From Candidatus Eiseniibacteriota bacterium (GTDB lineage Bacteria > Eisenbacteria > RBG-16-71-46 > DASYSL01): 64,000 nt of DNA. The position numbers were made by a program, and so were the translations under genes. Each line of letters begins with the position of its first letter. Position 1 is the stretch's first letter. Positions 47,086 through 53,262 of this stretch are shown here, in pieces. Below the pieces are notes generated by a model that did not search any database, was not told the origin of the DNA, and was given only the letters and a program-made list of their open reading frames with translations. Where the stretch lies: NCBI GenBank assembly GCA_031413115.1, contig JANOEH010000047.1, positions 703 to 64,702 of the forward strand, written 5' to 3'.

Positions 47086-47691
47086 TCACGCCCGCAGGCG
47101 CAGGCGGATCGCTTCCTTCGACGGCACCGTGACGCGCGCGCTCGCCGAGCCGAGCCGTGGATTCCACGCCCGAATCACGTACTGGCCACGGGGAAGGTGC
47201 GCCAGCAGGAACGAGCCGTCGCGCGCGGTGTTCGTGTTCCAGCGCTCGTCCGCAACCACGACGTAGAGGACTTCCGCGGGGTGCAGCTCGCAGAACACCT
47301 CGTACTCGCCAGGATGGGCGAACGAGGCGCGGCGGACCTGCCCCGGGCGATAGCGGCCCAGGTCGAAGCGGCCCTTCGGTGCGAGGCAGAATGCGTTGTG
47401 GTAGACGCGGTCGGCGTTGGCGAACTCGATGATCATGCCGGCCTGGACGGCGAGCACGCGCGGCTCGAAGCGACCGCCCTGCTGGGTCACGTGGGCGGTG
47501 TCGGTCGGCGCCCTCGATGCACGCTCCTTGACCGGCCACGCCTGGACGACGGTGTCGGGCGACGGCGGGTGGACCCTTCCGGCGACCGAGCCCCTGGTGG
47601 CGCAGCCGCCGAGCAACGTGCCGACGAGCGCGATCAGCGCCGCGGTCGAACGCAGGCGCCCCGGTCCTGGAATGCTCCGAATCGAGTCCAT
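47086..47691 (-). CDS. Lipoprotein with cupredoxin-like/beta-sandwich domain
   Basis: LIALVGTLLGGC lipobox. IEFANADRVYHNAF...YEVFCELHP has possible Cu-ligand His/Cys spacing. Function uncertain. Confidence 0.55.
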   Translation of the reverse strand: MDSIRSIPGPGRLRSTAALIALVGTLLGGCATRGSVAGRVHPPSPDTVVQAWPVKERASRAPTDTAHVTQQGGRFEPRVLAVQAGMIIEFANADRVYHNAFCLAPKGRFDLGRYRPGQVRRASFAHPGEYEVFCELHPAEVLYVVVADERWNTNTARDGSFLLAHLPRGQYVIRAWNPRLGSASARVTVPSKEAIRLRLRA

Positions 47692-47764
47692 TCGATCCCC
47701 TCCCCCGGAGGTATCGGCACGTTCGGGGGAGGGGTCCAGCGGGAACTCATGGCCGGATCGGGCG

Positions 47765-48997
47765 CTACTCCTTCGCCCAGCGCAGGAGCTCCGGCAGGTT
47801 GATCTCCTTGCCGTACATGAGCATGCCCACCCGGATCGCCGTGCCCGCGAGGATGCGCATGAAGTGGGTCGCCGCGATCAGCAGCAAGAGCGCGCCCATC
47901 CACTCCCACGTCGGCGCGGCCTTGAGGGCGATGCGCGCCGGCATGAGCATCGGCGCGAAGAAGGGGATCCACGACAGGACGACCGCGAGCATCGATTCGG
48001 GTTTCTCGAGGATCGTCTCGATGAAGATGAACGGGATGACCGGGATGAAGTAGAAGTACGCTTGCACGCGCGACGTCGACTGCATGTCCTTGATCGTCGC
48101 CAGGATCGTCGCGAACATCGACACGTAGAACGCGAACCCGAAGAAGAGGAACAGCAGGTAGGCCGCGATCGACGCCGGGCTCACCGCCGGCGGCAGCTGC
48201 CACGAGGAGAACACCGCGAACAGCAGGGCCGAACCGCCCCAGATGACGGCCATCAGCATGCCGATGCCGACGAAGGCGATGAGCTTCCCGTCCATCCACG
48301 CCTGCGGTCGGATCGCCGAGACGATGACCTCGGTGACGCGTGCCTGCTTCTCGCCGGTGATGCCCACCGCCAGGTACGCCGCCGTGGCGTAGATCGTGAT
48401 CAGCAACAGGATCACCAGCGCCAGCGCCGCGATCATGTCGCCCTTCGAGGTCTTCGCCTCGGGGCGCGTCAGTGTCTCGGCGATGGGGACCCGCGCGTCG
48501 ATCGCGGTGAGTCCGGCCGCATCGACACCCGCGGCGCGCCCCCGCTCGAGGCGCGCCAGCTCGGTGAGCGGCTCGCGCACGGTGCGCACCCAGCCGGGCC
48601 GCGAGCGCTTGGTCAGCACCCGGATCGAGTCGCCCGTAGCGAAGCCGGTGGGTACGAGGACGGCGCCGTCGTAGGTCTTCGCCTCGATCGCGGCCGTGAG
48701 CGCCGCGGGTTCGGCCTCAGCACCGGCGACGACCGTCCACTGCACGGTCTTCAGCGTGTCGAGCGCCGGCAGCTTCACGCCGATGCCGGGTGCGCCCGAG
48801 GAGAACGCGAGCTTTACCGGCTCGTTTGCCGCGCGGTTCGCGATCCAGCCCGCGCCGAACGACAGGCCGACCGACAGGAGCGGCATGAGCACGAGCGAGA
48901 CGAGGAAGTCGCCGCGGCGCACGACGCGCAGGAACTCGAAGCGGGCGACGGGCCACCACTCGGGACGGTTCACGCGGGCGTCAGACACGGGCGGCAT
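47765..48997 (-). CDS. ABC-2-family transporter permease
   Basis: N-terminal TM helix, large extracytoplasmic loop, then five C-terminal TM helices (ABC-2 topology). Confidence 0.85.
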   Translation of the reverse strand: MPPVSDARVNRPEWWPVARFEFLRVVRRGDFLVSLVLMPLLSVGLSFGAGWIANRAANEPVKLAFSSGAPGIGVKLPALDTLKTVQWTVVAGAEAEPAALTAAIEAKTYDGAVLVPTGFATGDSIRVLTKRSRPGWVRTVREPLTELARLERGRAAGVDAAGLTAIDARVPIAETLTRPEAKTSKGDMIAALALVILLLITIYATAAYLAVGITGEKQARVTEVIVSAIRPQAWMDGKLIAFVGIGMLMAVIWGGSALLFAVFSSWQLPPAVSPASIAAYLLFLFFGFAFYVSMFATILATIKDMQSTSRVQAYFYFIPVIPFIFIETILEKPESMLAVVLSWIPFFAPMLMPARIALKAAPTWEWMGALLLLIAATHFMRILAGTAIRVGMLMYGKEINLPELLRWAKE

Positions 48998-51859: not shown

Positions 51860-51868
51860 TGCACCTCC

Positions 51869-52549
51869 ATGAACGAACCCGTCGACGCCCCACTCCACGT
51901 CACCCCCGCCACCCGCAAGGGCGAGGAGACCCGCGAGCGGATCCTGGCCGTGGCCCGCGATCTGATCCACCAGCACGGGTTCAAGCAGACCGGCCTGGCG
52001 GACATCCTGGCGGCGAGCCGGGTGCCCAAGGGCTCGTTCTACTTCTACTTCCGCAGCAAGGAAGAGCTCGCGACGGAGTTGCTCCGCCAGCACCGGGTCA
52101 CCTATCGCGAGGCGATGGAACGCGACGTCTTTCCACCGGGCGGCGAGACGATCCCGCAGCTCGTGGCGTTCTTCCGCGGCTCGGCGCAGCGGCAGGCGGA
52201 CGCCGGCTGCAAGTCGGGATGCCTGCTCGGCAATCTGGCTGCCGAGATCGGCGACCTCCACGAGGACCTGAGACGCGAGGTCGTCGCCAGCTTCCTCGAG
52301 ATGCGCCAGGCCTTGACCTGTGTCCTCGCGCGCGGGCAGGCCCGCGGCGAACTGAAGACCGACTTCGCGCCGGATCAGGCGGCGGAGTTCCTGATGTCGG
52401 TGATGGAGGGATCGATCCTTCTCGCCAAGGTGCGGCGCGAACCGGCGGCCTTTGCCGCAGTCGAGTTCTCGCTGGCCCGTTACCTGGAGACGTTGCGCAA
52501 CCCGGCGCCGCCGCATTCGGCCGGCCCCACGAACGGAGGGATCGCATGA
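51869..52549 (+). CDS. TetR/AcrR-family transcriptional regulator
   Basis: TRERILAVARDLIHQHGFKQTGLADILAASRVPKGSFYFYFRSKEEL TetR N-terminal HTH. Confidence 0.9.
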   Translation: MNEPVDAPLHVTPATRKGEETRERILAVARDLIHQHGFKQTGLADILAASRVPKGSFYFYFRSKEELATELLRQHRVTYREAMERDVFPPGGETIPQLVAFFRGSAQRQADAGCKSGCLLGNLAAEIGDLHEDLRREVVASFLEMRQALTCVLARGQARGELKTDFAPDQAAEFLMSVMEGSILLAKVRREPAAFAAVEFSLARYLETLRNPAPPHSAGPTNGGIA

Positions 52550-53262
52550 TCGCGACCACGTTGCGGATCGAGACCGACGAACAGCTCGTCGAGCGTGCGC
52601 AGGCCGGCGAATCGGCCGCGTTCGACGAACTGGCGCGGCGCTACACGAACATCGTCTACCGGATCCTGTACAAGATCCTGCGTCACGACGAGGACACGCA
52701 GGACGCGCTGCAGGACACGTTCGTCAGCGCGTACCGCGCGATGCCGCGCTTCCGCAAGGACGCCAGGTTCTCGACCTGGATCTATCGCATCGCCACCAAC
52801 GCGGCGCTGATGAAGGCGCGCGCGCGGAAGACGAACCTCGTCTCGCTGGATCATCCGACGGATGACGACGACGCGCGTCACGCGTGGGACCTGCCCGACC
52901 GGAAGGCGACGCCGGACCAGGACATCCTGTCCGACGAGACGCGCCGGGTGATGGAAGCGGCGATCCAGGCGCTGCCGGCCGAGCAGCGGGCCGCGTTCGT
53001 GCTGCACGACATGCAGGAACTGTCGAGCGCGCAGACCGCCGAGGCGATGGGAATCACGGTGTCCGCCGTGAACTCGCGCCTGCACCGTGCGCGCGTGTTC
53101 CTGCGCGACCGCATCGGCCGCTACGTGCGCGAGCCGGAGCCGGCGACGTGGCGCAAGCTGGATCCCGCGACGGCGGCGAAGGCCGCGCGCCTCACGCGCG
53201 TGGTCGATCGCACGGAACGCGCCGCCGAAGCGATCCGCGAGGCGCGACGCACGGCGGCCTGA
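52546..53262 (+). CDS. ECF sigma factor (third) with ~60-aa C-terminal extension, ATGA-coupled to the TetR gene
   Basis: ALQDTFVSAYRAMPRFRKDARFSTWIYRIATNAAL (region 2). AFVLHDMQELSSAQTAEAMGITVSAVNSRLHRARVFL (region 4). Extra tail ...EPEPATWRKLDPATAAKAARLTRVVDRTERAAEAIREARRTAA. Confidence 0.8.
   Translation: MIATTLRIETDEQLVERAQAGESAAFDELARRYTNIVYRILYKILRHDEDTQDALQDTFVSAYRAMPRFRKDARFSTWIYRIATNAALMKARARKTNLVSLDHPTDDDDARHAWDLPDRKATPDQDILSDETRRVMEAAIQALPAEQRAAFVLHDMQELSSAQTAEAMGITVSAVNSRLHRARVFLRDRIGRYVREPEPATWRKLDPATAAKAARLTRVVDRTERAAEAIREARRTAA

Follow-up and report, generated by a model that had tools for sequence, protein, structure and literature searches.

We analysed a divergent locus in a 64,000-nucleotide stretch of DNA from a Candidatus Eiseniibacteriota bacterium (contig JANOEH010000047.1; the whole 64-kb stretch is called the window here). 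On the minus strand, a gene for an SPFH/Band_7 protein is followed by a gene for a small Arc-like ribbon-helix-helix (RHH) protein, two further small genes, an ABC-2 type exporter and a cupredoxin-like lipoprotein; on the plus strand, genes for a TetR-family regulator and an extracytoplasmic function (ECF) sigma factor run in the opposite direction. A preliminary description of this DNA had treated the locus as one system under TetR control, whereas comparison with related loci points to an SPFH-RHH cassette with a putative operator of its own. Because the genome has ~68% GC, genes were called by third-position GC (GC3) frame analysis together with translation, and domains in the ten locus proteins were assigned by Pfam, NCBIfam and PADLOC scans. 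GC3, translation and Pfam confirmed the gene content, operon layout and ATGA couplings described earlier, the overlaps being those of RHH/lipoprotein, orf104/ATPase and TetR/ECF. The divergent intergenic gap (51679..51868) was likewise as described, 190 bp long and AT-richer than its surroundings (GC ~0.57 vs ~0.68), and the three palindromes listed in it were present at the places given.

The SPFH-RHH pair and its upstream element

The SPFH side of the locus comprises the following features.

51678..50809, minus strand: SPFH/Band_7 protein, 289 aa (PF01145, 90.4 bits vs a cut-off of 23.6, E=1.8e-25)
50799..50602, minus strand: Arc-like RHH protein, 65 aa (PF07878, RHH_5, 27.0 bits vs a cut-off of 26)
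51737..51708, minus strand: predicted SPFH promoter, sigma-70-like TGGACG-18-TACAAT (the only promoter-like match in 46800..55400, 8.6 kb)
51701..51730, minus-strand reading TGATTCCAATA-TGATATTA-CAATGGAATCA: proposed RHH operator, three sites with 11-bp phasing, a degenerate gaTAtcAAAgTGATATCAcTTtGaTAtc

A GGAGG ribosome-binding site lies 5' of the SPFH gene. The RHH (Arc/CopG-like) domain was recognized above the PF07878 cut-off, and the Arc family model itself (PF03869) gave 20.3 bits, just under its cut-off of 20.4. NCBIfam held no specific model for the SPFH, RHH, two small and 217-aa proteins of the locus, and PADLOC left SPFH, RHH, the small proteins, TetR and ECF unmatched, returning generic ABC-ATPase matches only.

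We fetched 80 genomic loci from one-genome-per-species contigs, out of at least 599 matching species-level genomes, and searched each window protein against these SPFH loci. An RHH homologue was found directly downstream of the SPFH gene and on the same strand at 79 of the 80, typically with a gap of -4 to +20 nt. Homologues of TetR and of the two small proteins were found near SPFH at none of the loci, and an ECF homologue (within 6 kb) and an ABC-2 permease homologue at one each. An ABC ATPase lay within 6 kb at 23 loci, most of them from Streptomyces, where it is part of a different module (PadR, ATPase, FtsX-like permease). The co-occurrence of SPFH, RHH and ABC-2 genes that the preliminary description had offered as a check was therefore borne out for the RHH gene and not for the transporter. 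All-against-all clustering of the neighbouring open reading frames (ORFs) at the 80 loci found no third conserved gene and showed only Streptomyces-specific synteny of penicillin-binding protein, PadR, ABC and FtsX-like permease genes. An NfeD partner was absent according to Pfam scans of the operon proteins, and RHH was the sole conserved neighbour across the 80 loci. Loci with the pair came from Actinomycetota, Bacillota, Pseudomonadota, Bacteroidota, Acidobacteriota, Planctomycetota, Verrucomicrobiota, Cyanobacteriota, Chloroflexota, Gemmatimonadota and others; Deinococcota, including Deinococcus plasmids, and the B. cereus group, including B. anthracis, were added separately, and Parabacteroides has the pair as well. 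SPFH and RHH pairwise identities co-varied (r=0.83 overall; r=0.46 for pairs below 70% identity; Mantel 0/999), which argues that the pair travels as a unit.

The RHH proteins are 55-100 aa long and share a 45-aa core (..rK.flLR.dp....al.rWA.DelRS.N.QIEflLR.AL) with variable tails; they align weakly to P22 Arc over residues 4-47 (E 0.05-0.5, marginal). Their annotation is inconsistent, as ‘hypothetical’, ‘Arc family’ or ‘HicB antitoxin’, and some were missed. On the Bosea sp. ANAM02 plasmid pANAM02 (L103, 3223-3420), an unannotated RHH gene (…LSLRLSPEVVKALKRCAEDDLRSVNATIEVMVREGL…) directly follows SPFH, with TGATATCA upstream; the PLSDB gene table, known to have gaps for this record, does not list it. 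In Streptomyces (e.g. L021, 10896-11129), the RHH proteins are considerably extended at the N-terminus, and a P(R)RGRPP motif that resembles an AT-hook is conserved at their C-terminus. At seven loci of Bacteroidota and Verrucomicrobiota (L010, L011, L014, L027, L046, L050 and L074), an extra ORF of ~170-190 aa lies between SPFH and RHH. These inserted ORFs have hydrophobic segments and are of at least two different sequence kinds; they may encode scaffold clients.

Upstream of the SPFH gene, an exact TGATATCA was found within 250 nt at 67 of 79 loci, at a median distance of 40 nt from the start codon. The upstream regions contained 3.65 copies per kb, whereas the other 1.4 Mb of fetched DNA contained 0.0106 per kb (~340-fold enrichment). 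Half-site spacing peaked at 11 nt (118 counts) and 22 nt (35 counts), and the usual form was three sites with 11-bp phasing that overlap the -10 region. Anchoring gave the palindromic consensus gaTAtcAAAgTGATATCAcTTtGaTAtc, in many cases with a TTGAC that precedes TATCA by ~18 nt, a geometry that places the element across the promoter spacer, -10 region and start site. The element reads TCAAAGTGATATCACTTTGA in Deinococcus, for example, and GATATAaaagTGATATCAtttttATATCA in B. thuringiensis; dyad symmetry extended over 20-28 bp, with perfect palindromes at some loci, and TGATATCA persisted both in 70%-GC Streptomyces and in Bacteroidota. In addition, the motif followed the RHH gene. It was absent from the sole RHH-less locus (L025), where a terminator directly follows SPFH; SPFH paralogues of 31-34% identity had neither RHH gene nor motif; and the motif-positive Bosea locus without an annotated RHH did hold the gene. 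Symmetry, helical phasing, cross-phylum persistence and tracking of RHH collectively suggest an operator rather than merely an extended -10 box, and we infer that the TGATATCA element is a putative RHH operator. Three Streptomyces loci (L021, L023 and L073) had an altered operator centre, e.g. GTGTAATCAC. Co-variation of an RHH beta-strand position (V to M) with this change was considered and discarded as evidence, since that residue points into the core of the protein and L021, L023 and L073 are closely related.

In the window, the 30-bp palindrome at 51701..51730 has perfect 8-bp outer arms (18-nt arms, 78% complementary) and had previously been taken for a TetR operator. Its central site TGATATTA is one mismatch from TGATATCA, and the flanks at 11 bp, GATTCC and GGAATC, are symmetric (consensus GATATC). 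It overlaps the predicted SPFH promoter, other loci have TTGAC -35 boxes at the position equivalent to that promoter, and an exact TGATATCA stands in the same place in relatives L085, L086, L088, L092 and L093 (63-78% SPFH or ECF identity). As the palindrome is a degenerate element of a family that is common upstream of SPFH-RHH genes without TetR, and as it overlaps the sole promoter match, it is best read as an RHH autorepression site, and its assignment to TetR was not supported. Midway through the intergenic region, a GC-rich inverted repeat (51781-51811, 14-nt arms) was neither conserved in relatives nor exceptionally stable (z about -1.4 to -1.8). An ECF-type promoter (AAC...CGT) was also sought in the intergenic region and rejected, because its 20-nt spacing does not fit.

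The SPFH protein has >8000 homologues at E<=1e-10, many of them 60-100% identical and from uncultured Eisenbacteria-like bacteria; at E<=1e-30 the subfamily formed 960 clusters at 50% identity. It is common throughout the B. cereus group, B. anthracis included, and occurs in many Streptomyces, in Deinococcus and in gut Bacteroidales. Identity to the window protein was 52-67% across phyla (80 loci). An AlphaFold2 model built from a two-clade alignment reached a pLDDT of 70.4 (48.8 with 16 close sequences). It placed two transmembrane helices (12-31 and 38-58) ahead of an alpha/beta domain (59-206), which two more helices follow (207-250 and 258-273). The predicted layout is thus an N-terminal two-helix membrane hairpin, the SPFH alpha/beta domain, long coiled-coil helices and a highly conserved C-terminus. 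The best Foldseek matches of the model were HflK/C, stomatin, erlin, prohibitin, flotillin and QmcA (probability 1.0, E 1e-9 to 1e-6, ~260 columns, identity 15-19%), and in the model the SPFH fold is followed by long oligomerization helices of the kind that cage-forming members have. Among solved SPFH proteins, the closest in sequence were QmcA (E=0.0026) and PH1511 (E ~0.003), a search of PDB sequences with the SPFH profile giving nothing at E<=0.001, and the scores stayed far below the NCBIfam cut-offs for HflK/HflC (TIGR01933, 27.9 vs 159.4 bits; TIGR01932, 20.5 vs 134.4 bits). Streptomyces members carry N-terminal extensions of ~40 residues. Since two membrane helices put both ends on one side, these extensions make it most likely that the SPFH domain is cytoplasmic, on the same side as RHH. 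FlotP of B. anthracis was considered as the same protein and rejected, as it is a flotillin with NfeD.

The divergent TetR-ECF pair and the lineage-specific neighbours

The features of the plus-strand pair and of its intergenic box are as follows.

51839..51853: TetR box TAGACGACCGGTCTA, containing GACCGGTC, 16-30 nt upstream of the TetR start
51869..52549, plus strand: TetR-family regulator, 226 aa (TetR_N PF00440, 51.5 bits, and TetR_C_13 PF16925, 72.3 bits)
52546..53262, plus strand: ECF sigma factor, 238 aa (Sigma70_r2 PF04542 and r4_2 PF08281; TIGR02937, 103.7 bits vs 42.9)

The TetR protein combines the TetR_N helix-turn-helix with a ligand domain and resembles AcuR and CurR, both under the NCBIfam cut-offs. 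The ECF protein has the sigma-2 and sigma-4 regions only, with TIGR02937 above its cut-off, and Pfam recognized no anti-sigma factor next to it at the locus. The C-terminal extension reported for it exists, as a tail of ~40 aa past region 4, but is not conserved among homologues, which are 220-238 aa long and align over ~84% of the query.

The intergenic regions of seven sequences, the window and six related loci down to 72% SPFH identity, were aligned. TAGACGACCGGTCTA was 100% conserved in all seven and near-identical in L092 and L093; it occurs once within the 64-kb window. Its distance to the SPFH operator varied from ~110 to ~200 nt among relatives. Lying beside the TetR start, with a spacing to the SPFH operator that changes from relative to relative, the box points to TetR autoregulation rather than to control of the SPFH operon, and we regard TAGACGACCGGTCTA as a probable TetR autoregulatory operator. 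Judged from the position of the conserved box in this comparison, no predicted TetR operator overlaps the divergent SPFH promoter. Together with the missing TetR homologues near SPFH elsewhere, this speaks against the earlier view of a TetR-controlled locus. Of the TetR-proximal palindromes proposed as operators, GACCGGTC and GTCTAgTAGAC (51839..51860), the part within TAGACGACCGGTCTA was upheld by its invariance, but the first GTCTA arm is not conserved in relatives. The comparison of the relatives' intergenic regions, where a lack of conserved palindromes had been named as refuting, gave an invariant TAGACGACCGGTCTA, and TGATATCA in the place of the 30-bp palindrome, with that one arm lost. 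The TetR box may resemble the LmrA/YxaF (QdoR) operator. In each relative, a TAnnnT hexamer stands 7-8 nt before the TetR ATG and a ribosome-binding site is absent, which suggests a leaderless tetR-ecf transcript with the box inside the promoter spacer.

The ATGA coupling of TetR and ECF was verified and the pair is conserved in the lineage; contrary to the preliminary description it is not unusual, because a TetR beside an ECF is the described context of groups ECF203 and ECF125, for which TetR control of ECF expression has been suggested (Casas-Pastor et al. 2021, PMC7826278). In common with these groups, the window has TetR immediately upstream of ECF and no recognizable anti-sigma, and the conserved TetR box at the tetR-ecf promoter agrees with the suggested control; the match is by context only and not by group profile, and the window ECF has a short variable tail.

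The remaining genes of the locus are listed below.

50605..50300, minus strand: lipoprotein-like ORF, 101 aa, with an LSGC lipobox (sequence and translation), ATGA-coupled to the RHH gene
50296..49982, minus strand: 104-aa small protein (orf104) with a single C-terminal hydrophobic, transmembrane-like segment (sequence; no Pfam match)
49985..48981, minus strand: ABC ATPase, 334 aa (PF00005, 102.4 bits, E=4e-29), ATGA-coupled to orf104
48997..47765, minus strand: ABC-2 permease, 410 aa (PF12698, 101.2 bits, E=8e-29)
47691..47086, minus strand: cupredoxin/CarboxypepD_reg-like lipoprotein, 201 aa (weak, sub-threshold Pfam matches only)
53342..53995, plus strand: 217-aa protein (no Pfam or NCBIfam match)
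53992..55242, plus strand: HI0933-like flavin adenine dinucleotide (FAD) protein, ATGA overlap with the 217-aa gene at 53992

The ATPase (ABC_tran) and permease (ABC2_membrane) are encoded together, as in an ABC-2 type exporter; the ATPase resembles DrrA, GldA and NodI, all under the NCBIfam cut-offs, and a 73-nt gap separates the permease gene from the cupredoxin-like gene. In all relatives at 71-96% SPFH identity, the TetR-ECF pair diverges from SPFH-RHH, behind which small ORFs follow. Loci found via the ECF protein (76-78% identity) have the same TetR-ECF/SPFH-RHH arrangement, and a distant Eisenbacteria genome (63% identity) has SPFH-RHH only. Both tiny membrane or lipoprotein-like ORFs proved to be real genes, with 54-97% (lipoprotein) and 26-85% (orf104) identity in relatives; the 101-aa lipoprotein is conserved in L081, L083 and L085. 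The ABC-2 permease is present in L081, L083, L086 and a JGI relative and absent from L085, L088 and L093, and L085 and L093 keep TetR-ECF and SPFH-RHH without the transporter. The cupredoxin-like gene is confined to the closest relatives. What follows ECF varies: the 217-aa and FAD genes, LiaF-like and LytTR two-component genes, Transgly_assoc, or genes for a short-chain dehydrogenase and a Ser/Thr kinase. Synteny is just as strong for the acyl-CoA dehydrogenase and acetyltransferase genes that flank the locus, so the adjacency of TetR-ECF may reflect inherited gene order rather than function.

Two proposed regulatory units and the rival explanations

These comparisons make it reasonably probable that the locus consists of two adjacent regulatory units, an SPFH-RHH cassette and a divergent tetR-ecf unit, rather than one TetR-controlled system. 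The first unit would be an ancient, widespread cassette of a promoter, the SPFH gene and the Arc-like RHH gene. The SPFH product would be a stomatin/HflK-like cage-type scaffold, anchored in the membrane via its N-terminal two-helix hairpin, and co-translated RHH dimers would bind three TGATATCA-type sites one helical turn apart. Since RHH bound there would occupy the promoter from its spacer through the -10 region to the start of transcription, comparative evidence suggests that RHH represses its own operon and limits the dosage of the scaffold. In this lineage the cassette appears to be extended by the lipoprotein, the small hydrophobic-segment protein and the ABC-2 exporter, which would share the SPFH promoter and may be scaffold clients. 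In the second unit, TetR would bind TAGACGACCGGTCTA between a weak -35 and the TAnnnT -10 of a probably leaderless mRNA and would thereby make ECF expression dependent on a ligand. A link of TetR to the SPFH promoter found no support in the sequence comparison.

Several points weigh against the two-unit reading. Its support is wholly comparative, and the window copy of the operator is degenerate, with a TGATATTA centre and flanks that match at 4/6 positions. TGATATCAT resembles an extended -10 (TGnTATAAT), so that its conservation could partly be that of a promoter. The RHH protein is without a sensor domain, which leaves relief of repression unexplained, and the SPFH topology is inferred only, the N-terminal charge bias being weak. 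Furthermore, TetR-ECF always adjoins SPFH-RHH within the lineage, which leaves room for the two to be functionally connected, for instance through a second promoter that depends on ECF.

The older interpretation, in which TetR binds the palindromes of the shared 190-bp region and represses a divergent SPFH-RHH-ABC-2 module for efflux, self-immunity or envelope stress, with the ECF factor co-induced, appears unlikely. A divergent TetR layout is classic for efflux operons, the arrangement is kept in the lineage, and LiaF-like and Transgly_assoc genes stand beside ECF in relatives; the envelope-stress flavour of the earlier proposal is plausible. However, the conserved box lies at the tetR start, ~110-200 nt at variable distance from the SPFH promoter, no second TetR box was found in the 64-kb window, and the motif family of the 30-bp palindrome is present where TetR is absent (0/80). 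The efflux part of the proposal fared no better, since the permease accompanies SPFH at a single locus of the 80 and the transporter is dispensable in L085 and L093. That TGATATCA is instead a strong extended -10 promoter only, or the site of another factor, with RHH acting elsewhere or via protein contacts, seems to us a distinctly improbable account, although TGATATCAT fits TGnTATAAT at 5/6 positions and a TTGAC box stands at -35 distance. Promoters need no dyad symmetry, yet perfect 20-28-bp palindromes occur (e.g. TCAAAGTGATATCACTTTGA in Deinococcus), the copies are phased at 11 bp, the motif is retained in phyla with different promoter consensus sequences, and it vanishes exactly where the RHH gene is absent.

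We would give very little weight to SPFH-RHH being a toxin-antitoxin-like or anti-phage module, with SPFH as a membrane-damaging effector and RHH as antitoxin and repressor. The gene order, with the small RHH gene second, and RHH autoregulation do resemble higBA/hicAB-type loci, the NCBI pipeline names the RHH protein ‘HicB family antitoxin’ in B. thuringiensis, and one Deinococcus plasmid copy lies amid AbiE, Fic and insertion sequence elements. Nevertheless, neither SPFH nor RHH had a PADLOC match, the partner is an SPFH protein and not a HicA toxin (Pfam), and the RHH proteins are conserved only in the 45-aa DNA-binding fold, their variable tails leaving no conserved toxin-binding segment. 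SPFH is unusually conserved at 52-67% across phyla, and fast-evolving defence genes usually do not show such high conservation. In Streptomyces and the B. cereus group the pair is in stable chromosomal synteny with housekeeping genes. A search of 2.9 million viral contigs gave 7 matches, each at or within ~5 kb of a contig end, a position from which they were read as host DNA flanking prophage calls.

How the proposed autorepression might respond to a signal can be suggested by analogy. In PspA-PspF, the gene for a membrane-binding scaffold is paired with that for its operon's regulator, PspF being an activator. In a comparable feedback switch, which we regard as a tentative and rather doubtful idea, the cytoplasmic face of the SPFH cage would capture or release RHH, as PspA does with PspF; here RHH would be a repressor and the SPFH-RHH contact is hypothetical. 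If such a switch operates, damage to membrane or scaffold would alter how much repressor is free and so adjust expression of the operon, which would supply a signal for a sensor-less 45-aa repressor and explain the inseparability of the two genes across phyla.

Viewed against known systems, the two-unit reading has partial parallels. QmcA-YbbJ of E. coli, PH1511-PH1510 of P. horikoshii and HflK/C have in common with the window protein the Band_7 domain, an N-terminal anchor, the alpha/beta domain and long C-terminal helices, while identity to solved SPFH proteins is only 15-19% over the full length. Stomatin-type operons carry NfeD, whereas the invariant partner here is a 55-100-aa RHH protein. 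NfeD partners, and small SPFH6-12 subfamilies without documented members, have been described, and an RHH partner was not reported (Hinderhofer 2009). With Arc, Mnt, CopG and MetJ, the RHH protein appears to share a minimal RHH fold and palindromic, repeated short sites one helical turn apart over a promoter. Unlike Arc-type repressors, it is tied to a chromosomal membrane-scaffold gene, as the second gene of the operon and not in phage or plasmid control, and its putative operator TGATATCA has been kept from phylum to phylum; to Arc itself it aligns only marginally in sequence. HrcA-CIRCE and NrdR-box are cases of a dedicated repressor whose near-identical palindromic operator is retained across many phyla. 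In contrast to these, the regulon here appears to be the single repressor-encoding operon, and a ligand- or chaperone-sensing mechanism is not evident.

Literature searches for SPFH linked with RHH, Arc, CopG, HicB or TGATATCA found no relevant paper. The gene list itself is ordinary; the SPFH-RHH-operator cassette is real and widespread, and apparently an undescribed variant of SPFH operons. The SPFH subfamily is distinct and very highly conserved, and its constant partner would be an Arc-like repressor with a near-unchanged operator across phyla. Regulatory DNA sites are seldom conserved so deeply. The site, the protein and the promoter would give a defined regulatory handle on an uncharacterized membrane scaffold in genetically tractable bacteria, and in the window the analysis separates an ancient SPFH-RHH-operator unit from its add-ons, namely the ABC-2 exporter, the small membrane proteins and the TetR-ECF pair.

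Hairpins and genes beyond the ECF factor

Two stable hairpins were found in the window locus. The first, GC-rich and on the minus strand (47699..47732; CCTCCCCCG...CGGGGGAGG; -28.4 kcal/mol, z=-3.6), separates the ABC-2 permease gene from the cupredoxin-like gene, and its 3' arm includes the GGAGG ribosome-binding site of the latter; it could be a translation limiter, or a processing or termination mark. The second, on the plus strand (53294..53326; -27.1 kcal/mol, z=-3.2), starts ~30 nt past the ECF stop codon and stops 15 nt short of the 217-aa gene, and a clear U-tract is absent. It may end the tetR-ecf transcript, in which case the 217-aa/FAD pair would be a separate unit.

The 217-aa/FAD pair recurs near ECF in L081, L083 and L085 and is fragmented in L092. 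In L085, the 75%-identity relative, two LiaF/LiaI-like membrane proteins and a LytTR-type two-component system are encoded after ECF (5091-8250), a gene set that plausibly lends the TetR-ECF pair an envelope-stress theme. Some ECF groups are kinase-regulated (PMC7826278). A gene for a Ser/Thr protein kinase with TPR repeats lies near the ECF gene both in the window (55339-57654, minus strand) and in L086, a 72%-identity relative (4934-7324).

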